Assembly (NCBI GenBank): GCA_948439995.1
Contig: CAOJNP010000004.1
Location: 1-59,474 of the forward strand
Reading direction: 5' to 3'
Source: an uncultured Erysipelotrichaceae bacterium
GTDB lineage: Bacteria > Bacillota_I > Bacilli_A > RF39 > UBA660
Length of the DNA stretch: 59,474 nucleotides
Both the position numbers and the translations under genes were made by a program. Shown here in pieces: positions 31,829-43,925 of the stretch. The stretch's first letter is position 1. Every line of letters starts with the position of its first letter. The notes below the pieces were generated by a model. That model ran no database searches. It worked only from the letters and a program-made list of their open reading frames with translations, and had not been told where the DNA came from.

Positions 31829-32965
31829 ATGAAAATCATTGAAATCAAAACAGTAGAGGATTTTGAACAATTAAGAAAATTAAATAAAAAGGAATCTGTT
31901 TTACTAAAAATTTATGATCCGATGTCTAAAGTACAACTCTCATCGATTGATTTAAAAGGATTTCGAGGAAGGATTACTGTTTCTTTTCAGAATTCAAAGC
32001 ATCCATATTACTTTAATGTAATAGTTGAAAATGAAAATGGGAACACTTTTATATTTTCCAATGTTAATAGTAGTATTATTTATCTTGATCAAGGAAATAT
32101 GAAGTTTTTTATCAGGTGCAACCGAAAATCTATGGGATAACAGAAGATGCAGATTTTAATTCTTTACCAAAAAGATTATTACCAAAAACAAAATTAATTT
32201 TGCAACAGGATCTTGTTTTAAAGCAACGAATTTTACCTTCTTTAAGATGTAATATTGGATGGTAATAATCATACTATTTACGCGACCAAAGAAATTATTA
32301 TTTCTTGGAATTAATGTGGAATAACATTTCAAAATGTTTGTTTTCAAGAAATAGATCACGTTTTACCCATTCAAAATTTTTCAGATTTAGGGAACATTTT
32401 AAAATATTCAAACGATCGATTTGTTGCATATTTAACACAAAATATTAAACAGAAATGGATTACTCCAGTTTCATTAGAAGGCTTTTATGGAACCCTTATT
32501 TTACTTGGAAACGGATATGTATTAGATCATGTGCAATTAAAAAATAATCATGAGAATTCCATTGGATTAATTTCTTCTATTTCTAATTATACCAATTTTT
32601 TTTGTAAAGATTTTCATATTGTTCATCTCACTTTTCCAAAAGCAAATAAAAAAAAGATAGGGACAATTTTAGGAGAAAAAAAGTTTATCCAAATAAGTAT
32701 GTCACTGCTCCAGGTTATATATTTCAAAATTGTAATGTAAAAAATTCTTATATTCCTAATTTTTTACAAGCAGGTGTGTGTAGGAGAAGCTGATGAATTT
32801 ATTGAATTTATTCAATGTGGTACAGAACATATTTTAGAAATTTCAAATACGAAATTTATGTCACTTCCATATTTTGATGAAAGTCATTGTTTTTGTGCTA
32901 AGCATTATGATGGAAGAAAACGAATTGTCATTCCATCAAAAAGATATCGAAAAGAAATCAAGTGA
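31829..32965 (+). pseudogene. Fragmented hypothetical gene
   Basis: Several short same-strand ORF fragments (31802-32140, 32531-32740, 32774-32965) span about 1.1 kb. Confidence 0.45.
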
Positions 32966-33008
32966 ATTTTTTAAATTGTATTACATAACTATTATTAAGG
33001 AGTGTAAT

Positions 33009-33330
33009 ATGTTTTTAATTCAATTATTTAAAAGTCTTTTCTTTTTTACTGGATCCTATTCGAATCAAGTTTTTCCGGATCCACTTAGTTTAGAAGAAGA
33101 AGAAAAGTGTATTGATTCTATGTTAGCTGGAAATTTAGATGCTCGTAATCAATTAATTGAACATAATTTAAGATTAGTAGCTCATATTGTAAAAAAATTT
33201 GAAACAAAAGATACAGATACTGATGATTTAATTAGTATTGGTACCATTGGACTTATTAAAGGAATTGATTCTTACAATAAAGAGAAAGCAACGCGAATTA
33301 CTACTTATGTAGCACGATGTATTGAAAATG
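33009..33330 (+). CDS. sigK: Pro-sigma-K, 5' half (spoIVCB-like)
   Basis: AAGGAG RBS; hydrophobic pro-sequence; LIEHNLRLVAHIVKKF, DDLISIGTIGLIK, TYVARCIEN then diverges. Confidence 0.95.
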
Positions 33331-33340
33331 CAGTACTCAC

Positions 33341-33841
33341 ATGATGGAAATTAATGTATTGATTAGTGATCTATTCTATAGATTAAAAGATACAATAGAA
33401 ACAGAAATAATAATTAAATCTACTCCTACATGGAAAATAGATTCTATAAATAAAGATAGTAGCATAGGAGAACAGATCAAGTATTATCGTAGACTTGCAG
33501 GGTATAAACAACCTGAATTAAGTTTAAAACTTGGATTTACTAGACAAGCACTCCATCATTTAGAAAATCAAGAAATGAAACTTGTAGATATTAGATTATT
33601 AAAAGGTGTTATAGAAGAACTTGGAATTGAAGATAAAATAATTATTAATGATGACTACATAAAATTTTTACTTAATGATCCATGTAAAAATATTATTAAT
33701 ATAAGAGAACGTATGAATTTAACTAGACAAGAATTTGCTAATATGTTAGAGGTGTCTATTACATCAGTTAGAAGATGGGAAAATGGCAATAGTCATATAT
33801 CTAGAAATAAGTATGATAAACTAAAAAAATGTATGAGTTAG
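33341..33841 (+). CDS. Double XRE-type HTH protein
   Basis: IGEQIKYYRRLAGYKQPELS...LEN and IRERMNLTRQEFANMLEVSITSVRRWENG. Confidence 0.85.
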   Translation: MMEINVLISDLFYRLKDTIETEIIIKSTPTWKIDSINKDSSIGEQIKYYRRLAGYKQPELSLKLGFTRQALHHLENQEMKLVDIRLLKGVIEELGIEDKIIINDDYIKFLLNDPCKNIINIRERMNLTRQEFANMLEVSITSVRRWENGNSHISRNKYDKLKKCMS

Positions 33842-34035
33842 TCGCTCGTACATTCTTTTTTTGCTTCTTCTTCAAGATGATCTAAAACTAAATTTAAAAC
33901 TTTTTCTTTAGAAGAATCATTTATTTTTAGATTTTTAATTTTTTCTAGCATAAGTGTTGCATGGAATCTAGCCACACCATTTGCTAATACTTTCCTTTCC
34001 TCAGGTGTTTGTGGTAAATTGACAAAGACTTTCAA
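33838..34035 (-). CDS. Small hypothetical protein
   Basis: AGGAGG RBS, TTG start, 65 aa. Confidence 0.6.
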   Translation of the reverse strand: MKVFVNLPQTPEERKVLANGVARFHATLMLEKIKNLKINDSSKEKVLNLVLDHLEEEAKKECTSD

Positions 34036-34082
34036 GCAAACACCTCCTATAGTAAAATATATGAATTTTATTAAGGTTAATT

Positions 34083-35635
34083 CTATTTATCTTTTCTAAC
34101 TTTAAAATAGTTAGGATCTTCTGCTTCTTTTTCTTCTACATATTCGTTTACTAGTTTATCTCCATCAATTTCTAATTCATCATCTCCAATATCATATCTT
34201 CTATGAATATCAGACATTGTTTTTCTTGTAATTTCAAATGGTTTTAAAATTACTGGTTCAATTTCACTATCAATATTAAATACTTGTACGACATTATGGT
34301 TTCCATCTACAAACATACCAGCGATTCCATCTTTTAATAAATCATGGGCATCTGTATTTTCTAATATAATTTTAGATAAAATATCATCAGCAAATCCACA
34401 AAACTTAAATTTTAAATTTGAGTTAATTTGAGGTGGTATAATATCAGCTGATAATCTTTGACTATTTATGCACAAATGCACACCAGTTGCACGACCTTTA
34501 CGAGCGATTTCTTTTAATCTTTCTATACAATCTAAATATTCTTCTTTTGCTTCTTTTGATAAGCTTTTAACATCTATATCAAATACATCAGCAGCTTCTT
34601 CTAGGACTAGAAAAATATGCTTTCTAGGTTGTACTGGATTTTTAAATTTATTAAATGAATCTATGTTATAGCATGGAAATTTTAATTCATCTGTTCTATT
34701 TAAATGGATTTCATAAACCATTTTAACCATGTTTTGAAATCCTATTATACTATTAACAATCGTACAATTTTTTAATCTTTTCCAAATTCCAGTATAATCA
34801 ATTTTCTTGCCATCATAGATAAAAAGCTCACAATTTTGTCTTAATGCCTGATAGCAAATTGATTTTTGAACTATGCTCTTACCTGCACCAGTTGCCCCCC
34901 TAATTTTTCGTGTATTAGCTTTTTTGTATTCCAAATATATGGCTCATCAAAATTATTGATTCCAAGATTAAACTTTGGACTACCAGCTTTATAAGAAATA
35001 AGAAATTTATCATTCCAATTAATAGTTTCAGGATTAGATGGATCTAATTTACTTAAATTTATTAAGACTTTATTAGAAGCATGTGGTCTAACTCCCTTAA
35101 CATATTTTTTATCTAGAAAATTTTGTATTAGTTCTTGATTATTAATAAATTCATCTGTTTTTTTACTATTCTTATAAATTAACCAAAACTCATTATTTTT
35201 ATTGTTTGGATTAGGATACATAACAATCGTTTTAGGAGCTAAACCTTTGATTTTGTCATCACTAGTTTTAGGCATTAATGCTTTAACTAATTGTTCATCT
35301 TTTTCTTCATATTTAATTGGTTTAAAAAATAATTTACATATCACTATAATAGGAATTATTGATAGAACATGGATCAAAATATAAAATAAATTTATTTTCT
35401 TTCCTAAAAGTGTATTTAGTAATGGAATTTGTAAATTAACTTTATTTATATAGGGGATTATATTTAAATTCAAATTAAACATCAATAACATATATATTGT
35501 TAAGAATAATATACAAATCTTTATAATATAGCTTTTCCAGTTATGATATATTTGTAAAAATATTGTTTCTAGCTTTCTATATATACTAGATAAACTAAAT
35601 CTCTTTTTCTTCATGATCTTTGTTCTCCTTTTCAT
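34083..35635 (-). pseudogene. FtsK/SpoIIIE (TcpA-like) membrane ATPase split by a frameshift
   Basis: Two TM helices in 34871-35635; GATGAGKS, LVLEEAAD, ARKGRATGVHL..SQR in 34083-34934. One extra G in the G6 run (C6 at 34895-34900) joins them as IHEKLGGATGAGKS. Confidence 0.8.
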
Positions 35636-36662
35636 TTATTAGTTTATTTTCTTCCATTTTATTTTTAGTAATTTCATTAGTCCAACCCTCTTTTTTAGTT
35701 TCCTTATGAACTATTATATTAGGCGATCCATCAGAATTTTTTCTAAACTCAAAAATGTTGTGAATGCGTCTACACCACGCACTATAAGTTGATGGATTCA
35801 TAACTCTATCATAAGCATAAATATTATCAAAACATTCGTTCGTACAAAAGTAAATATGTTCATACATTGCGATTTTATTATTGTACCTAGCACTTAAATT
35901 TAGTACTGGAAATCGATCAGTTAGAATCAACATTAATTCGATAGGAATTTGACCTTTAAACTCATCAAATAAGATTACAGATTGACCTGCATACCCATCC
36001 CATAACGAATTTAAATTTTGATAATTATAGATCCTAAAAATATCTTTTGCATTATATCTAGAATAGACATAGGTTGTCTTATAGGTAGCTGTCGCCCCAT
36101 ATATAAAAGTACAATCAATATTTCTAAATTCTGTTGAATATTTTTCTTTTAAATATTCTTGCCTAATATTCTCTATATCTTTTAAATGAAATAATAAATT
36201 TTCATTTTCTTCAATAATTTCTAAATTAGTTTTTCCATCTTTAATTTTTTGTAATACCTCTGCTTTTTCAGAAAGCCTTTTTTCCTTTACTGACATAGGG
36301 ATCTCTCCAGCTTCTTCAAAATCAATTAAAGTTTCGTTTTTATCTATGTACTTATCTGTTTTCATAAGATAATTTCGATTGTCAGTTGCACTTCCAAGAG
36401 CTTGTTCGATATGGGCATATTTGAATCTTTTTTTACAAGTTGAAAATCTTACAGGGCTATTACATTTAAAATAAGCATGATAATGTGGAGTTTTTTCTTT
36501 AATTCCTATTTCTTCTGATATACAAAAATAAATAGGTTTAAATTTTAAAATAGTTTCTTTAAAACTTTCTCTAGTAATGTTATATTTACTAGGATTATTC
36601 TGTGTAATTTGATAGGATCTAGATTGACTATCTTTTTTAACTTTACTAGCTATAAAAACCAC
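35595..36662 (-). CDS. CRESS/pCRESS-like rolling-circle Rep (HUH endonuclease plus SF3 helicase)
   Basis: Motif I ITQNNP, motif II PHYHAY, motif III NYLMK, Walker A-like GATATYKT, WDGY, Walker B LFDEF, motif C FCTN. Start codon is uncertain because the GTG overlaps the RBS. Confidence 0.88.
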   Translation of the reverse strand: MVFIASKVKKDSQSRSYQITQNNPSKYNITRESFKETILKFKPIYFCISEEIGIKEKTPHYHAYFKCNSPVRFSTCKKRFKYAHIEQALGSATDNRNYLMKTDKYIDKNETLIDFEEAGEIPMSVKEKRLSEKAEVLQKIKDGKTNLEIIEENENLLFHLKDIENIRQEYLKEKYSTEFRNIDCTFIYGATATYKTTYVYSRYNAKDIFRIYNYQNLNSLWDGYAGQSVILFDEFKGQIPIELMLILTDRFPVLNLSARYNNKIAMYEHIYFCTNECFDNIYAYDRVMNPSTYSAWCRRIHNIFEFRKNSDGSPNIIVHKETKKEGWTNEITKNKMEENKLINEKENKDHEEKEI

Positions 36663-36688
36663 TCCTTTATAAAAAAATTTTAAATGTC

Positions 36689-36780
36689 GCTACATTGCTA
36701 CAAACTATGCTATAAGGTAATACTATACTTATAGCATGGGGCTACGTAAGGCTTAACGCCTTACTTGCCCTCACTATAAA
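36689..36780 (-). other. Rolling-circle origin/nick site: stem-loop with TAGTATTAC nonanucleotide
   Basis: ATGCTATAAG (36707-16) and CTTATAGCAT (36728-37) form the stem; the loop reads TATAGTATTAC on the minus strand. GCTACA repeats and a second hairpin GTAAGGC/GCCTTAC are adjacent, directly upstream of rep. Confidence 0.85.
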
Positions 36781-36790
36781 TATTTAATGT

Positions 36791-36985
36791 TTAGCTATTG
36801 TTAGACATTTTGATCTTTTGATTATGATTGTTTCCATAAGTCATAATTGCAAGTTCAATTTCAGCAGAGTCTAGAAATACTTTCTTTTCGTATGTTGGAG
36901 TTAATTGAATAATTACTACTACATATTCATTTCCAGTTTTCTCACTCACACGTGTTTCAATTCTACATGGTAGATCTAATTTCAT
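36791..36985 (-). CDS. Small protein upstream of rep (possible ssDNA-binding protein)
   Basis: AAGGA RBS; SEKTGNEY beta-hairpin-like motif. Function inferred from position only. Confidence 0.5.
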   Translation of the reverse strand: MKLDLPCRIETRVSEKTGNEYVVVIIQLTPTYEKKVFLDSAEIELAIMTYGNNHNQKIKMSNNS

Positions 36986-37259
36986 ACTTATATTTTCCTT
37001 TCTACATTTAGCTTACCTTGTTGGGATCAAGTTAATATAAACTAAATGACTTTATTTATTTTTCCCTAATTTCCTTATTCAAGAGAATTGTTTAGCTACT
37101 TTAAATATGTTATAATATCTCTTGAAATCAAGCTTTTTTATAGGCCTATATCTCTGCTTGATAGCTATATCTTACCATAGGCGAATATGGTAAATATATT
37201 TGTAAAAATGGGTATTTATTAAATTTATTTTGGTATATATAAGAAAGGAGTTCTATTTG

Positions 37260-37850
37260 ATGTTAGAAATTAAAAGAAAAGAAAGAATAAAAGAAATATT
37301 TTCTATTGATGAAGATAAAAAAGAACATGTAGATAGTATAAATCATGCAGTAAAAGAGGTTTCTAGAAATCGTGTTAGATACTTACGAAAAAGTTTAGGA
37401 TTAAGTGTTGGCGAATTTTTAGATGAAATTGATGGCTTTAGTGAAGAAACTCTACAATCTATTGAAAAAGGAAATTGTGGCTTAACTTTAGATAAAGCTT
37501 TAAAAATTTCTCAAAAACATGAGGTTAGTTTAGATTATTTATTTGGAATAAGTGATTATATGAGCGAAAATGAAATAGCTTTAGAAAAAGCATTTGAATA
37601 CATTTTTGATATTCAATTTCCTTTATTCGATAATGAATCAGATCCTACACTAGTAGTAAATTTCTCTACAAATAAATATTTATTAGAATACTTTTATCAT
37701 AAAAAATTACTAGAACACCAAAAAGAAAATAAAGAGATTACAATAGAAGAATTTGATCTTGAAATTGAAAATTTAAGAAATAAATATTTTGAATTGATTA
37801 AGTCACCTATAGTAAAAAATGTAAAGTATAATTGCACTAAAATTGATTAA
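37260..37850 (+). CDS. XRE family transcriptional regulator
   Basis: RVRYLRKSLGLS...IEKG...VSLDYLFG. Confidence 0.85.
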   Translation: MLEIKRKERIKEIFSIDEDKKEHVDSINHAVKEVSRNRVRYLRKSLGLSVGEFLDEIDGFSEETLQSIEKGNCGLTLDKALKISQKHEVSLDYLFGISDYMSENEIALEKAFEYIFDIQFPLFDNESDPTLVVNFSTNKYLLEYFYHKKLLEHQKENKEITIEEFDLEIENLRNKYFELIKSPIVKNVKYNCTKID

Positions 37851-37899
37851 TATTTAATTATAAAAAAATTATAGACTTTTTGATCTATAATTTTTATTT

Positions 37900-38367
37900 T
37901 TATCCTATTCTAATTAAGCAACCATCTTTACTAGCAATTCTAATATCACCAAATTCAGAGCAATCAGGATCAGACAAATTATACGTATATGTAGAAATCA
38001 TGTATATATCGGCTTTTCTATAATCATATCCATAGTAAAATAATCTTTCAGTATTCCAATACATTTTTATATCTCCTACACATAGCAAAGATAAACAATT
38101 GCCAAAACTAAATCTTTCTTCTACACAATAATAAACAACATGATCATATTCATTTTCAAAATCAGAAACTAATTTTTTATATTCAGGTAATAAATCTAAA
38201 TCAATCAGTTCATTATTTCTACACACTTTTGTTTTTCCTTGCTCAAAATCATTTAAGATAATAGGATCTAAATTAAATGTTTTTGATAACTTTTTTAATC
38301 TTCTTTTTGCTTCTTCTATTTGTTGTTCTTTTGATATATTTCTACTCATGATACCAATTCCTTTCAA
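37900..38367 (-). CDS. Hypothetical protein
   Basis: 155-aa ORF ending SEFGDI...LIRIG. Confidence 0.65.
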   Translation of the reverse strand: MKGIGIMSRNISKEQQIEEAKRRLKKLSKTFNLDPIILNDFEQGKTKVCRNNELIDLDLLPEYKKLVSDFENEYDHVVYYCVEERFSFGNCLSLLCVGDIKMYWNTERLFYYGYDYRKADIYMISTYTYNLSDPDCSEFGDIRIASKDGCLIRIG

Positions 38368-38596
38368 TTATTTTATTTATCAACATTAACTAGTATTTCG
38401 TTGACAAATAAATGGTATCATAAGTATTAATGGTAAATAAATTTTGAAAATAGGTATTTATTAAAAATGTTTTGGTATATTTTAAAATTTATATGTTTTA
38501 TAAAAAAATTATGGATCAATTTATAAATCCATAACTTTTTTTCATGCAGTAACTAACGAAATTTAAAATCATAATCTATTTAAACATTAATAAATA

Positions 38597-38866
38597 TTAA
38601 AGTTTACGATCAACAAAAAACTCTTTAATGTCTATTTCTAAAACACGAGAGATCCTATATAGTACGGCGATACTAAAAGATTGTTGAACTTTAGTAGATT
38701 CTATATTACTAATTAGACTATGGCTTAAATCACATTTTTCTGCAAGTTGTTCTTGTGTCATTTTCCCATACGAACTATATTTACTATTATTATGAAGTCT
38801 AAAATATTTTATATTCTTACTAACTAATTCATAAATATATCTGTCATCTTCAGGACTAAAATTCAT
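38597..38866 (-). CDS. XRE family HTH regulator
   Basis: MTQEQLAEKCDLSHSLISNIES. Confidence 0.88.
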   Translation of the reverse strand: MNFSPEDDRYIYELVSKNIKYFRLHNNSKYSSYGKMTQEQLAEKCDLSHSLISNIESTKVQQSFSIAVLYRISRVLEIDIKEFFVDRKL

Positions 38867-39016
38867 ATTATCACCACCTATATATATTTTCTCATTTATA
38901 GTAGATGTTTATAATATTCTTATTATAGATAAATGTTCTATAATAAGTGGCTTTCTGTGAAAAGTTATGTTATACTTATATTGAACTGATGGAGTTTAAA
39001 AAGTGAGAGGTGAAAA

Positions 39017-39694
39017 ATGATAAGTAGAATACTTAAAAAACTATTAAAGGCATTTTGCTATTTTATGATACTTGGACTTATATTCCAATATTTTCCTTTA
39101 TTATACATTCCTATATCGTTGTACTTAATTTTTAAATTATATAAAAATGATTTTTTTACTAAATTTTTAATAAAATATAAAATAAAAAAAGAATATAAAA
39201 ACATAAAATTTATAAATAAAATTAATTTATATGAAAATTTCAAAGAATATAACGAAGAAAATTTTGATAAAAATATATATGAATACAAAAAACACTTTAT
39301 ATGTTTATCAAAAAATAAGGTATCTATAATTGGCTATAACTCTATAAAAAATGAATTATATAAAAAAGATTTTGAGATCAATAATATAGAAGAAATATAT
39401 TTTGAAAATTCAACTGATGTTTATACATATACTACTTTTGATACAAAAACATATTATAGAACGATAACTACTCAATATAATTCATATACTGAAACTGTTA
39501 ATGAGCGAACACCTACTACAGCGAAAGGTTATAGAAAAGATTTTGGCTATGTAAATATTATATTTCAAGATATAGAAGAAAATGGAATAATGTTTGACTT
39601 TGGAAGACATAAAGATAGATATACAATACCTATAAAATTTAGAAGAATTTGTAGAAGAATTGGAATAAAAAATATATCAAAAATTCAATTATAA
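39017..39694 (+). CDS. Hypothetical membrane protein (element cargo)
   Basis: GAGGTG RBS; N-terminal hydrophobic segment. Confidence 0.65.
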   Translation: MISRILKKLLKAFCYFMILGLIFQYFPLLYIPISLYLIFKLYKNDFFTKFLIKYKIKKEYKNIKFINKINLYENFKEYNEENFDKNIYEYKKHFICLSKNKVSIIGYNSIKNELYKKDFEINNIEEIYFENSTDVYTYTTFDTKTYYRTITTQYNSYTETVNERTPTTAKGYRKDFGYVNIIFQDIEENGIMFDFGRHKDRYTIPIKFRRICRRIGIKNISKIQL

Positions 39695-39715
39695 AAAAGA
39701 AAGAGGTAAAAGAAA

Positions 39716-40249
39716 ATGAAAAAGATAAAATATTTAAGTCTAATTATGATAATAGCTTTCATGCTAACAGGTTGTGGTGGCAGTTCTGAAAAGGTAGTTT
39801 TGGCTAATGTAGTACATCCTACATCAGCAGAATACAATTATTATACGTTTAACGAAGTGAAAAATTTTGATAAAGTTTCTGTTAGTGGAATTAAATTAAA
39901 ACATAAAGAAAATAAAGTAAATAATAATAAAACACTTGGTGGAGATGTGGAATATGAATTTACTATAAAAAATACATCCAAAGAAACGATAGATAATATT
40001 GGTTATATGCTTTTCTTAAAAGATTCTAATGGAAGATCATTTGCAATTAGAGGAAAAGAAACAATAAGTTTAAAAGCAGGAGAAAAAACAAAAATAAAAG
40101 TATCTAGTATGTGGTGTAAAGATGATTGCGATAAATCAACTACTCAAATGCTTTTTATAGATGATTACAACAAAGATTATGCTACTTTAAACGTATATCA
40201 ATTAATTAGTACAAATTCAGATCAAACAATTAATACATCTGAATTATAA
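39716..40249 (+). CDS. Lipoprotein (element cargo)
   Basis: Lipobox LTGC; Ig-like beta pattern (FTIKNTS...SLKAGEK). Confidence 0.8.
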   Translation: MKKIKYLSLIMIIAFMLTGCGGSSEKVVLANVVHPTSAEYNYYTFNEVKNFDKVSVSGIKLKHKENKVNNNKTLGGDVEYEFTIKNTSKETIDNIGYMLFLKDSNGRSFAIRGKETISLKAGEKTKIKVSSMWCKDDCDKSTTQMLFIDDYNKDYATLNVYQLISTNSDQTINTSEL

Positions 40250-40269
40250 AAAGAAAGGAAGAATAGAAA

Positions 40270-41076
40270 ATGAAAAATGTAAAATATTTAAGTTTAATTA
40301 TGATTATGGCTTTAATGCTAACAGGTTGTGGAGATAAAGAAAATTCTAGTGGTGGAATTGATAATGTAAGTAATAAGAAAGTAGAATATTATAGTGAAGC
40401 TGAAACAATTTATTTTAATGCAGAAACAGGAAAGATATGTAATGATTATAAAGAAGAAAATAGCGAACGTTCAAATACTAATGGTTGTTTAAAATGGTAT
40501 TTATATAGTGATAATGGAGATAAAACTGTTAATCTTCTTTTAGATCATAATATATCTAACTCTATTGCTTGGAATACTAGAGAAAATCTAGTAAATGGTC
40601 CAAGTGATGAATTACTAACAACATTAAAAGAAAATACTAAAAAATGGACTGGTGTAGATGATCGAAAAGATCAATATACATTAAATTTGGGAGAAATCAA
40701 TTACACAATAGATTATAAAGGATATAAAGCAAGATTAATCTCTGGAGAAGAAATCAAAGAAATTGTAAAAGATACCTCATCAAATCAAAATGGAGATATT
40801 TATTTTGACAAATCTACTTGTAAATTTGATAGAGACTCTACTCCTAAATGCCAATATGGATGGTTATTTGATAGAACACAAAGCGATTGTAAAAATTATG
40901 GTTGCTTCAATGAGGGTGGTAGTTCTTATTGGACTAGTACAGCTTATTCAAATGATAGTTATAAAACAGCTTATAGAGTTTATTTAGGATTCTTAAGTCC
41001 TACTACTATTGATTCAAAAGATATTAGTATTGGAATTAGACCAGTAATAACAATAGATAAATCTCTAGTTAAATAA
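40270..41076 (+). CDS. Lipoprotein with a DUF6273/CLec-like C-terminus (element cargo)
   Basis: Lipobox LTGC; LLLDHN, ARLIS.EEI, YWTST, GIRPVI. Confidence 0.7.
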   Translation: MKNVKYLSLIMIMALMLTGCGDKENSSGGIDNVSNKKVEYYSEAETIYFNAETGKICNDYKEENSERSNTNGCLKWYLYSDNGDKTVNLLLDHNISNSIAWNTRENLVNGPSDELLTTLKENTKKWTGVDDRKDQYTLNLGEINYTIDYKGYKARLISGEEIKEIVKDTSSNQNGDIYFDKSTCKFDRDSTPKCQYGWLFDRTQSDCKNYGCFNEGGSSYWTSTAYSNDSYKTAYRVYLGFLSPTTIDSKDISIGIRPVITIDKSLVK

Positions 41077-41192
41077 TGATAGAATTGGACTTTATAAAAT
41101 AAAAGTCTTTTTCTTTTGCTTTAATCTATCTATTATTTCACTTTTGTGATATACTATATTAAGTTGATACATGTTGGAAAGGAATTGAAATT

Positions 41193-42944
41193 ATGAAAAG
41201 TACGAATAAGAAAAAAGATGATCGTAAAATAGCAATCTACTCTAGAAAATCAAAATATACAGGTAAAGGAGAAAGCACCAAGAATCAAATAGAAATGTGT
41301 AAAAAGAAAATCGCTTTTCAATTTGATGATATAGATTTAGATAATGATATTATTGTCTATGAAGATGAAGGATTTACTGGTTATAACATGAATCGCCCTG
41401 CTTTTCAAAAAATGTTAAAAGATATTAGAGATAATAAAATTAAAATCATAGCTTTTTATAGATTAGATAGAATTAGTCGTAATGTAACTGATTTTAGTAA
41501 TTTAGTAACAGAATTAGATAATTATGGAGTTGTTTTTTTATCAGCTACTGAAAATATAGAAAGCGTAACCCCTAGTGGTCGTGCTATGATGTTTATGAGT
41601 TCTGTATTTGCTCAATTAGAAAGAGATACTACTGCTGAACGTATAAGAGATAATATGATAGATCTTGCTAAAACTGGTCGTTGGCTTGGGGGGAATACTC
41701 CTACAGGTTTTGATTCAGAACAAATAGAACATATTACAATAGATGGAAAAAAACGTAAATTATTTAAACTTACAGAAAATGAAGAAATGCCTATTATAAT
41801 TACTCTATTTAAAAAAATGTTAGAATTAAAATCTTTAACTAAATTAGAAACTTATACGATTCAACATGATATAAAAACTAAAAATGATAAGTATTTTTCA
41901 CGTTGGGGATTAAAAAATATATTAACGAATCCTGTTTATGCTTATGCTGATAAAGACACACTAGAATACTTTAAAACGTTTGATGTAGAGATTTATGCAG
42001 AAGAAAAAGATTTTAATGGGGATCATGGTTTAATGGTTTACAATAAAACAGAACACAAAGGAAAAAATAAAGTCGTTATCAAAAGAGATGTAGAAGATTG
42101 GATTATTTCTATTGGAAAACATAAAGGAGTTGTTAGTGGTAAAGAATGGGTAGAAATTCAAGAATTAATCCTAAAAAATAGTGATATGAGGTATCGCAAA
42201 CCATCTGCTAGTAATTCTCTACTTTCAGGGCTTATAAGGTGTTCTCATTGTGGATCTTTCATGCGACCTAAACTAAAAAATAAAACTATTAGTGAAGATG
42301 ATAGAAGAAGATTCGATTATATGTGTGAGTTAAAAGATAAAAGCAGAAAACAAAAGTGTCAATGTAAAAATATTAATGGATTAGAAGCAGATGATTTAGT
42401 TATGGAAAAAATAAAAGAACTTGCTAATCCTAAATCTCTATTCTATCAATCATTAAAAGAAATATCTAAAAATACATTTACAGAAGAATATAAAAACAAT
42501 GAGGAGTTAAAAGCTTTAAGAACATCACTTACAAAAAATGAAAAAGATATATCTTCCTTACTCGATAAAATAAAATATGTAGATATTGATTTATTAGATG
42601 ATATTTCTAAAGAAATAAAATCTTTAAAAGAACAAAATTTAAAGATAGAAAAACAAATAAAGGATCTAACAAATACCAATTATGAAGAAATAAACGATAA
42701 AGATACTGCTGACCTTTTATTAAACGTTTTAGATACCTATTTTAACGAATTTAACGAATTAGACTTAAATACCAAAAGAAACCTAATAAAGCTTCTTGTA
42801 AGCTCTGTAACAACTGATGGAGAGGATATTACAATTAACTTTATAGGAGCTAGAACACTACAAGATAAAGATGTATGTGCTTGTAATAAAACAAGTGATG
42901 TATTAAGAATATCAGGATTTCCAACAGGTGAAGACAGCAAATGA
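41193..42944 (+). CDS. Large serine recombinase (SpoIVCA-like)
   Basis: IYSRKS, DEGFTG...RPAF, RLDRISR, FAQLER, LLSGLIRCSHCG zinc ribbon. Its stop codon overlaps the right att site. Confidence 0.96.
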   Translation: MKSTNKKKDDRKIAIYSRKSKYTGKGESTKNQIEMCKKKIAFQFDDIDLDNDIIVYEDEGFTGYNMNRPAFQKMLKDIRDNKIKIIAFYRLDRISRNVTDFSNLVTELDNYGVVFLSATENIESVTPSGRAMMFMSSVFAQLERDTTAERIRDNMIDLAKTGRWLGGNTPTGFDSEQIEHITIDGKKRKLFKLTENEEMPIIITLFKKMLELKSLTKLETYTIQHDIKTKNDKYFSRWGLKNILTNPVYAYADKDTLEYFKTFDVEIYAEEKDFNGDHGLMVYNKTEHKGKNKVVIKRDVEDWIISIGKHKGVVSGKEWVEIQELILKNSDMRYRKPSASNSLLSGLIRCSHCGSFMRPKLKNKTISEDDRRRFDYMCELKDKSRKQKCQCKNINGLEADDLVMEKIKELANPKSLFYQSLKEISKNTFTEEYKNNEELKALRTSLTKNEKDISSLLDKIKYVDIDLLDDISKEIKSLKEQNLKIEKQIKDLTNTNYEEINDKDTADLLLNVLDTYFNEFNELDLNTKRNLIKLLVSSVTTDGEDITINFIGARTLQDKDVCACNKTSDVLRISGFPTGEDSK

Positions 42945-43311
42945 AATCTTGATGTATTTTCGTGGAAATAAAAAAAATGGAAACAATGTCAGTTTGAATG
43001 ATTCTATCGGTTATGATAAAGATGGAAATGAAATTAATTTAATTGATGTAATTAAAGATAATTCTATTGATATTGCTGATACTTTGCATACTAAACATAA
43101 TTTAGAATTATTGAATCATTATTTGAAAGATTTGAGTCCTAGAGAACAAGAAATAATTAAGAAAAGATATGGACTTTGTTTGGAAAAGGAACAAACTCAA
43201 AAAGAAATTGCCAAAGAATTAGGAATTTCTAGAAGCTATGTTTCTCGAATTGAGAAAAGAGCTTTAATGAAAATATTAAAAGAATTTTTAAAAAGTAAAA
43301 ATGATCTTTAA
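42939..43311 (+). CDS. sigK: Sigma-K, 3' half (spoIIIC-like)
   Basis: NEILMYFR, IGYDKDGNEI, TQKEIAKELGISRSYVSRIEKRAL. Confidence 0.95.
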
Positions 43312-43421
43312 GAATCTTGAAACATTGATTTTTTCAATGTTTTTTTGTGTATTTTTTTCAATGCTTCGTTTACGAAACAAGTTTCTCATGATATAATATT
43401 TTAGAAATGTAGGTGTCATCG

Positions 43422-43925
43422 ATGGATTCTTTTATTCCAGATATTTATCAAAAAAGCATTTTTACAATTGATTATAAAAATTTAAAAAAAACAGGAATCA
43501 AATGTATTCTTTTTGATTTAAATGATACGATTGCTCCAGAGAGTATGTCTGTTCCAGATAAAAAATTAAAAGATTTATTTGCATATTTGGAAGGATTAAA
43601 ATTTAAACTTATTATTTTATCAAATGCCAGTAAAAATAGAGTAGAACCTTTTAAAGAAAAATTAAATGTCGATTCGGCTTTTCAAAGTGGAAAACCAAGC
43701 TTACATAAATATGAAAAAATTTTAGATTTATATCGCTTTGATGTTCATGAAATAGTTTGTATTGGAGATCAATTATTTCCAGATATTTATTGTGCAAATA
43801 AAATGGGATTTCGAAGTATTTTAATCAATGCTATTAGTAATAAAAAAGCAACGTTTTTAAATCGTTTTTTGTTTCAGCAATTAAGAAAAAAAGGAATATT
43901 AGAAAAAGGAGTTTATTATGAATAA
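43422..43925 (+). CDS. yqeG: YqeG family HAD IIIA phosphatase
   Basis: FDLNDT, LSNA, KP, IGDQLFPDI; upstream of yqeH. Confidence 0.85.
   Translation: MDSFIPDIYQKSIFTIDYKNLKKTGIKCILFDLNDTIAPESMSVPDKKLKDLFAYLEGLKFKLIILSNASKNRVEPFKEKLNVDSAFQSGKPSLHKYEKILDLYRFDVHEIVCIGDQLFPDIYCANKMGFRSILINAISNKKATFLNRFLFQQLRKKGILEKGVYYE

Follow-up and report, generated by a model that had tools for sequence, protein, structure and literature searches.

We analysed a 59,474-nucleotide stretch of DNA from an uncultured Erysipelotrichaceae bacterium (RF39; UBA660; GCA_948439995.1, contig CAOJNP010000004.1, positions 1-59,474 of the forward strand), which is called the window below, and in which a 9.6-kb element interrupts the sporulation gene sigK. 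At its right end the element carries the gene of a large serine recombinase (LSR), and at its left end an open reading frame (ORF) for a protein with two helix-turn-helix (HTH) domains, which is called the tail below. Our best explanation, with a probability of about 60%, is that these are the two halves of one composite gene with the attachment site attP in its linker, which is whole when the element is free and is split on integration. An earlier note on this DNA had proposed protein forms that depend on the recombination state, and the structural half of that proposal was borne out by the frame across the joined ends, by tail ORFs without a start codon, by a linker that evolves as coding sequence, by natural fused ORFs and by phage integrases with the same LSR-HTH build.

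The coordinates of all features are given in Table 1. The LSR gene ends with AAA TGA, and the earlier note had claimed that this stop codon (42942-42944) borrows its final A from host sigK. Comparison of attL with attR confirmed this, as the first rightward mismatch between attR and attL is A 42944, which belongs to the host, against C 33331, which belongs to the element. When the two ends are joined, the crossover codon is followed by the codon 33329-33331, by AGT ACT CAC and then by ATG ATG at 33341, all in the LSR frame, which gives 583 + 4 + 166 = 753 aa; the in-frame fusion that had been read from the circle junction is therefore there in the sequence. It had also been said that the HTH ORF has no obvious ribosome-binding site and overlaps the stop of the truncated sigK, and both statements were correct for the window, where the ATG of the tail ORF and the sigK stop overlap as ATGA and no Shine-Dalgarno-like purine run was found by eye in the 22 nt upstream of the tail ORF.

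The resolvase domain of the recombinase (PF00239) had an E-value of 2.1e-31, and Y16-S17-R18 were invariant in 33 aligned relatives. The protein also has PF07508 and PF13408, and in the model of a relative (P0277, see below) long paired helices at residues 435-497 fit an inserted coiled coil. Judged by these features, namely a catalytic serine domain, Recombinase and zinc ribbon domains with a coiled coil, and a short attP, the 583-aa protein is an LSR. The two HTH_3 stretches of the tail had an E-value of 6.9e-13, and matches to the PDB sequences of SinR, HipB, HigA2 and the 434 repressor (E 1e-5 to 1e-2) class it as an HTH protein of the XRE family (Cro/C1-type).

In silico rejoining of the sigK parts gave 107 + 122 codons in frame at CIEN|EILM, with Asn107 (33327-33329) as the last sigK codon of the 5' part, and the product is a 229-aa sigma factor with Sigma70_r2 and Sigma70_r4. 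The element is thus skin-like in that its removal restores a single sigK ORF. The same insertion point in sigK was found in most of 80 genome loci collected with an LSR profile, in which the matches to the sigK 3' part begin at residue 1, and by this comparison the LSR belongs to a large family that occupies the identical sigK point across the Bacillota. The host genome (G000; 1.14 Mb in 52 contigs, 90.6% complete) encodes, besides sigK, Spo0A, SpoIVA and SpoIIID (C1:8263-8574, C5:25391-26101 and C1:60410-60634), so sigK should matter to this host and should need restoring. The host appears to be a spore former of very small genome from the mouse gut.

The earlier note had proposed to check whether the frame is conserved in homologous elements. 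The LSR end and the tail ORF shared their frame across the crossover codon in 16/16 loci that hold both, and these loci span LSR identities to the window of 44-100% and tail identities of 25-100%. Left junctions were then pooled from 24 genome loci and 41 metagenome loci found with a profile of the tail, which gave 55 distinct attL junctions. A tail ORF was present in 44 of them, and in 42 of these 44 the LSR frame stayed open from the crossover on (over 120 aa or more in 40, and as far as the contig end in 2), so the frame was kept on this side too. The tails fall in two deep clades of about 170 and about 205 aa. Among the 24 genome loci, 12 had an open frame of 170-208 aa in the LSR frame past the crossover, with the other two frames never open for more than 71 aa, and the other 12 had no tail ORF and a read-through of 0-44 aa. 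The sigK 5' part lay directly upstream in 33/41 metagenome loci. A class-wide survey of open frames was too small to use, as the tail profile matched 2/400 scored genomes, both with 171-aa frames. On the LSR side, the ORF ended exactly at the crossover codon in 88/120 best relatives by pattern and in 2 more by eye, and in 19/120, with hosts that use AAC and not AAT for this Asn, it went on into sigK for a few codons; apart from four that are taken up below, the remaining ones were truncated or odd. One LSR relative (P0132, 649 aa, 73% identical) has a C-terminal extension that resembles sigma region 4 (...ILELRFGL...), as if the LSR ORF continued, in frame with sigK, into the 3' part of that gene.

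Many tail ORFs have no start codon of their own. There was no ATG, GTG or TTG in codons +1 to +19 in 11/40 full tail ORFs, and in ten of these 11 (L028 was outside this look) the first canonical start came at codon 34-129, with no purine-rich run ahead of it in those shown. An in-frame ATG or GTG of sigK at codon -3, from the Arg-Cys codons, is often chosen by gene callers, and this leads to annotations of 173-174 aa that begin with MYRKCN. This host start was missing or blocked by a host stop in 25/40 cases (for example, Ile-Glu written as ATT GAA gives TGA) and was usable in 15/40. Neither a host start nor an element start was available in 5/40 (L028, L117, L119, L120 and L125). The earlier claim that the HTH ORF is expressed from the sigK promoter therefore does not hold in general; in the window itself, some free tail may be produced in the mother cell upon firing of the sigK promoter, given the ATG ATG and the ATGA overlap.

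Analysis of substitutions in 26 ORFs (220 pairs) gave a dS of 1.16 and a dN/dS of 0.45 for linker codons +8 to +45, with in-frame indels of two codons, and a dS of 1.14 and a dN/dS of 0.27 for the HTH part. On these values the stretch between the P' arm of attP and the first HTH evolves as coding sequence. As far as the sequences tell, the LSR start across an intact attP is the only route by which the whole ORF would be translated in every such element.

The symmetry of attP was measured in the 16 loci with both ends, by setting the 24 nt to the left of the central AA in attR against the reverse-complemented 24 nt to its right in attL. The arms matched at 14-19/24 positions in register 0 and at 2-9 positions in registers shifted by 1-3, in 16/16 loci, which makes attP an imperfect inverted repeat some 50 bp long. 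The last two bases of the final LSR codon (AA) form its centre, and both arms are coding: the P arm encodes the peptide FPTG..., and the P' arm makes up the first eight codons past the crossover. The TGGAAAT motif of the P' arm also supplies the ATG or TTG at codons +5/+6. In a clade whose arms covary to GTTCTTT/AAAGAAC, the TTG at +6 is gone and the tail ORF is intact, so this TTG is part of the attP motif rather than a conserved start.

Natural full-length LSR-HTH homologs, for which a search had been suggested, were found as three database proteins, one ORF in a tandem insertion and the integrases of two phages. An exhaustive search of representative proteins with the tail gave three in which a tail stands C-terminal to an LSR, namely P0277 (753 aa), P0312 (716 aa, 15 contigs, the longest of 37.5 kb) and P0310 (736 aa, partial), all with Resolvase, Recombinase, Zn_ribbon and HTH_3 domains. 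Residues 18-556 of P0277 were 65% identical to the LSR of one sigK locus (L026) and residues 575-752 were 52% identical to the left-end ORF of the same locus, so P0277 is the joined form of an element that is seen split there. In genome G041, two different LSR elements are inserted in tandem in one sigK (L142, G041:C28:39300-47000, and L029), and at their inner junction a 750-aa ORF runs from the first LSR into the tail of the second element (L142:5156-7408). The left element of this tandem has no left-end HTH ORF, and genes of 732 aa and 429 aa lie on its other strand.

Two complete phage genomes encode an LSR with a C-terminal HTH part: the LSR of Paenibacillus phage Harrison (695 aa) has two HTHs, and that of Clostridium phage CP51 (655 aa) has one. 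In the alignment with the family profile, the Harrison tail covered both HTHs (probability 86%, E 4.9e-6) and the CP51 tail the second (68%, E 4.8e-5), and identity of these LSRs to the sigK family was low (24-34%). No attP-like inverted repeats were found inside the integrase gene of either phage, nor, in a short-range scan, just downstream of that of Harrison. Inverted repeats do lie downstream of the integrase stop in CP51, and this phage probably has its attP outside the gene and its LSR-HTH fusion as a permanent one. In both phages a gene for an HTH repressor-like protein precedes the HTH-tailed integrase (CP51, L136 1488-4453, where a metalloprotease gene is also present; Harrison, L137 2116-4543), an order that we take to be immR-immA-int as in ICEBs1-like modules. 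Scans of IMG/VR with the tail profile and with P0277 gave nothing, and none of 50,697 phage records had a tblastn match to the tail.

The AlphaFold2 model of P0277 had a mean pLDDT of 78.2 and a pTM of 0.40, and its only long stretch of low confidence, residues 555-577, contains the junction K575|C576, so that the junction is predicted to fall in a disordered linker between LSR core and tail. A complex of the tail with LSR residues 330-583 was predicted with a score of 0.53 (runs 0.25, 0.53 and 0.53), and the best of three controls scored 0.03; the runs shared at least 73% of contacts and the pLDDT of the partners was at least 78. In the calibration, the mark was reached by 58/80 solved complexes and 2/110 mismatched pairs, and at scores of 0.60 or less by only 7/80 and by both mismatches, counts that hold only roughly for our prediction, which used its own alignments. 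This lends weak support to binding of the LSR by the tail.

Besides these two ORFs, the element encodes an FtsK/SpoIIIE-like ATPase, a Rep-like protein and two more HTH regulators (Table 1), as well as membrane proteins and two lipoproteins. The Rep-like protein pairs Viral_Rep with an RNA_helicase domain (SF3-like), which is the build of small circular single-stranded DNA replicons, and its gene adjoins that of the ATPase; it suggests that the excised circle is able to replicate. By its gene content the insertion looks like a small integrative element, probably with the ability to replicate or transfer as a circle. A terminator-like hairpin was found directly at the end of the tail ORF, and the same kind of scan found none after the LSR stop. 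The two lipoprotein genes are adjacent and have in common an 84-nt 5' stretch (39694-39777 and 40248-40331, 87% identical), which comprises the ribosome-binding site, the signal peptide and the lipobox, and their mature parts differ. An AT-rich direct repeat of 46 nt (80%) lies upstream of the gene of the 206-aa HTH regulator (37200-37245) and in the gap before that of the 89-aa regulator (38442-38487), and the two copies may be shared promoter or operator regions. When repeats within the element were considered as operators of the tail, nothing could be assigned.

Table 1 Features of the sigK element and its borders in the window
Feature	Coordinates	Strand	Basis or remark
sigK 5' part, with 4 element-encoded codons and stop TGA (33342-33344)	33009..33344	+	translation; Sigma70_r2; tblastn of relatives
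attL core AAATG	33326..33330	+	sequence; inferred central crossover dinucleotide AA 33327-33328, codon positions 2-3 of the LSR-frame Lys
P' arm of attP, right half of the imperfect inverted repeat, motif TGGAAAT	33329..33352	+	18/24 positions complementary to P arm in register 0, 4-7 when shifted
Double-HTH tail ORF, 166 aa from ATG, frame open from 33326	33341..33841	+	two HTH_3
Terminator-like hairpin with T run, at end of tail ORF	33828..33864	+	1 found, shuffle mean 0.3
FtsK/SpoIIIE-like ATPase	34083..34934	-	phrog_1358, E 1.7e-24; weak Pfam match
Rep-like protein, Viral_Rep and RNA_helicase domains	35595..36662	-	E 7e-6 and 2.8e-4, just over Pfam cut-offs
Second HTH regulator, 206 aa	37230..37850	+	domain and profile matches
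Third HTH regulator, 89 aa	38597..38866	-	domain and profile matches
LSR, 583 aa when integrated	41193..42944	+	Resolvase, Recombinase, Zn_ribbon_recom (Pfam)
P arm of attP, within last 9 LSR codons, motif ATTTCCA	42916..42939	+	symmetry analysis
attR core AAATG	42939..42943	+	central AA 42940-42941
sigK 3' part, starts EILMYFRG, to stop	42943..43311	+	Sigma70_r4 (Pfam)

If the two ORFs are one composite gene, every intact attP, whether on the excised circle, in an incoming copy or at the inner junction of a tandem, would make the gene whole, and its product would be an enzyme of about 750 aa that consists of the LSR core, a flexible linker made from the attP arms and two XRE-type HTHs, with the terminator-like hairpin after the tail. 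Integration into sigK would cut the gene in the linker, and the LSR would then end after 583 aa at the TGA completed by the host. The tail ORF, without a ribosome-binding site and often without a start, would be left behind the 5' half of sigK and would be silent or weakly expressed there. Excision would rejoin the gene, and the state of the DNA would set which form of the enzyme can be made. We infer that the fusion is translated and matters, and that, while the element is free, the tail has an effect in cis, either on the recombinase to which it belongs or on DNA that flanks attP. It is a tentative further step that the tailed form would be the enzyme of the integration phase and that the tail-less form would wait for an excision signal. 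As part of this, loss of the tail might mark the integrated state, which we regard as equally doubtful.

Several observations weigh against the composite-gene explanation. No intact attP junction was found among the 41 metagenome loci, of which 33 were placed behind a sigK 5' part and the other 8 could not be placed; of the unplaced loci, L096 begins within the tail ORF, L135 gave no tblastn match, L123 has 28 bases ahead of the match, an in-frame stop precedes the ORF of L103 by 15 bases, and different sequence lies upstream in L128, L132 and L134. The excision junction (33329/42943) and the back-joint from the LSR end to the left end of the element were both absent from the assembled contigs of 4 mouse-gut runs (Logan contigs) over 32800-43500, but contigs drop rare forms, so this result is uninformative on excision. 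A fused form was absent from the 120 best LSR relatives, and four of these 120 have their last codons in another frame. Relatives of the tail that are longer than it did not turn up in a word-index search; the exhaustive search later found fused forms, so this blank is a limit of sensitivity. In one distinct junction (L099, the same as L100) the crossover codon is followed immediately by TGA, with an ATG at +13, so the tail is an ORF by itself that cannot be fused. The tail ORF is frameshifted near codon 26 in L124 and near codon 33 in G008 (L011/L002), which is of the window's genus and whose sigK 5' part is 93% and tail ORF 68% identical; the frameshift in G008 is either decay or an error in the assembly of a metagenome-derived genome.

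Two observations on the contigs of the mouse-gut runs stand apart from this. One contig of run X14 stops at 33316, near attL, and we draw no meaning from it. A 16.6-kb contig of run X4 (record 25), from another mouse-gut study, matches 33225-43035 apart from 91 differences and diverges beyond; the same element seems to have a host background there that differs somewhat.

The geometry of attP also weighs against a functional reason for the shared frame. Both ORF ends lie inside attP arms that are intolerant of indels, so the frame may have been frozen from one ancestral 1-in-3 event. dS was reduced in codons +1 to +7 (0.62 vs 1.15 elsewhere), and both the conservation of the junction peptide and the lack of indels there are to be expected from constraints on the DNA by themselves. 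In addition, sigK offers an ATG (from the Arg-Cys codons) and a TGA in one frame, and an element that uses both host signals is automatically in frame. The earlier note had put the chance of an accidental in-frame join at 1 in 3. The relatives exceed what accident would give (16/16 and 42/44), but frame conservation is weaker evidence than it looks, because the attP arms bar indels. What does not follow from attP geometry is the coding type of the linker, the tails without a start and the loss of the TTG in the covarying clade.

Much of this could also be read in another way: the double-HTH protein would have a role in its free form only and be made in the integrated state, and the in-frame join on the circle would be a frozen accident with an irrelevant fused protein. 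We consider this unlikely, and with it the routes by which the free tail would be made, that is, from the sigK promoter with coupling to the truncated sigK stop, from the host ATG/GTG or from an ATG/TTG of its own. In the window, the ATG ATG and the ATGA overlap make free tail plausible. Counts from the relatives point the same way, with a canonical start within 19 codons in 29/40 tail ORFs and a usable host start in 15/40, and the first of these counts also speaks against the composite gene. The tail ORF of L099/L100 stands alone behind its stop, the attP arms cover both ORF ends, and free proteins of 165-174 aa are annotated by gene callers. An rdf of the SPbeta type occupies the same position, across attP from int (PMC6957869; this and all later statements with a PMC number refer to the parts of the papers that were available). 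Yet the 11/40 ORFs without a canonical start in 19 codons, 5 of them without a host start as well, are intact 170-aa ORFs under purifying selection, and covariation of the attP motif removes the TTG at +6. In the window, the tail ORF is not preceded by a Shine-Dalgarno-like sequence. A usable host start was no commoner at tail-bearing junctions (15/40) than at tail-less ones (5/11, the 11 being 15 short-frame junctions minus four tail-bearing loci that were removed by hand), and permanent LSR-HTH fusions occur in phages.

A further reading takes the tail as a recombination directionality factor (RDF). Free tail from the sigK promoter would let the short LSR excise the element in the mother cell, which we think improbable. 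Excision would then cut the tail off from the sigK promoter and fuse it to the LSR, and the RDF in cis would bar re-integration into the restored sigK, a second half that is just as improbable. The position of the tail across attP from int is that of sprB relative to sprA (PMC6957869, PMC8270828), known sigK and spsM elements time their excision by an RDF specific to the mother cell (PMC5025042, PMC6957869), and engineered C-terminal fusions of integrase and RDF are reported to promote attL x attR recombination (PMC5737554, PMC12286644, PMC6511857). The predicted contact of tail and LSR gives weak support, and the host encodes Spo0A, SpoIVA and SpoIIID, so that sigK must be restored. If the tail were the sole RDF, however, the hosts of the 5/40 relatives that cannot make free tail from a canonical start could not restore sigK, and in Harrison and CP51 the tail is a permanent part of an integrase that has to carry out integration. 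An RDF in cis would also hinder integration after transfer, yet the Rep and FtsK-like genes suggest spread. Tail-less LSR relatives exist in sigK (11 junctions), and no RDF of the XRE type was met in the available parts of the literature compared.

That the tail ORF is a decaying remnant, expressed in no state, is hardly credible. It would account for the frameshifted copies in G008 and L124 and for a truncated remnant in L020, but a dN/dS of 0.27 in the HTH part and 0.45 in the linker over 220 pairs, together with 93 homologs of mostly 150-176 aa from a word-index search and 40 distinct full ORFs, does not fit decay. Programmed frameshifting from the truncated sigK frame into the tail frame was dropped as a candidate, with no slippery site beyond a run of four A.

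The closest known systems are the skin element of B. subtilis (SpoIVCA/Skr) and skinCd of C. difficile (CD1231/CD1234), in which, like here, an element that bears an LSR interrupts sigK and must excise. The skinCd mini-element retains the 3' end of the CD1231 gene (PMC5025042), which by analogy suggests that the skinCd att site also overlaps the 3' end of its recombinase gene. Unlike the tail, the known RDFs of these elements are small separate genes (Skr has 64 aa; PMC6957869) that are driven by sigma-E/SpoIIID, and a recombinase that reads across attP into another ORF is not mentioned in the available parts of the literature compared on them. By the same literature, the insertion point of B. 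subtilis skin lies in a different part of sigK.

The unit attL-rdf...int-attR of SPbeta fits the element by position, with the tail as a putative RDF whose predicted binding to the LSR is weak. The rdf of SPbeta, however, is a small separate gene with its own start and promoter, whereas here the second gene is a 166-aa protein with a double XRE-type HTH, its ORF is continuous with that of the LSR with no gap or stop and often no start between them, and 11/40 relatives are start-less.

The composite 753-aa ORF resembles the 'suicidal' archaeal integrases of the SSV type, which have the att site in their own gene, are split by integration and are restored by excision (PMC8371274). These are tyrosine recombinases in which, on the account available, the catalytic protein is cut and the split enzyme is thought to be inactive, whereas the serine enzyme here retains its entire catalytic and DNA-binding core and loses only its C-terminal tail. 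According to the part of a 2021 review that was available, recombinases that interrupt the gene encoding them are exclusive to archaea (PMC8371274). All three Pfam domains of the LSR remain on the 583-aa part. In the integration-dependent immunity of mycobacteriophages (BPs and relatives), attP reportedly lies inside a gene whose protein has different lengths in the free and the integrated state. The split gene there is said to be the repressor, with an integrase of the tyrosine type, and so differs from the element here, in which the gene that holds attP is the integrase itself. The LSRs of Harrison and CP51, with a core and one or two XRE-type HTHs in one ORF, correspond to the fused form, and attP of CP51 is probably outside the gene. 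A literature search, judged by titles and abstract openings and with subscription journals mostly outside its coverage, found no description of an LSR ORF that runs across attP into an HTH ORF.

Serine integrases are prized because the direction of their reaction is set by a separate factor. To our knowledge, the timing of the directionality factor in natural elements is known for only a few systems. Many elements that reside in sigK, in Bacillota of the gut and in others, share the arrangement described here, and if the tail changes how the enzyme acts, this arrangement would be a compact, protein-coded memory of the integration state and a design from nature for recombination switches that are one-way or self-limiting. 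The group of self-splitting integrases would also widen, from archaeal tyrosine enzymes to bacterial serine enzymes. Engineered phiC31 Int-gp3 fusions and latches indicate that a C-terminal partner changes the reaction of an LSR and that the state of the DNA can set the form of the enzyme (PMC6511857, PMC12286644, PMC5737554). Those fusions of integrase and RDF are man-made, whereas the arrangement in the sigK elements is natural; if the tail did act as an RDF that is joined to its LSR on excision, the elements would hold a self-resetting directionality latch within one gene, the natural counterpart of what has been engineered, and theirs would be the first recombinase from bacteria to split and rejoin the gene that encodes it.

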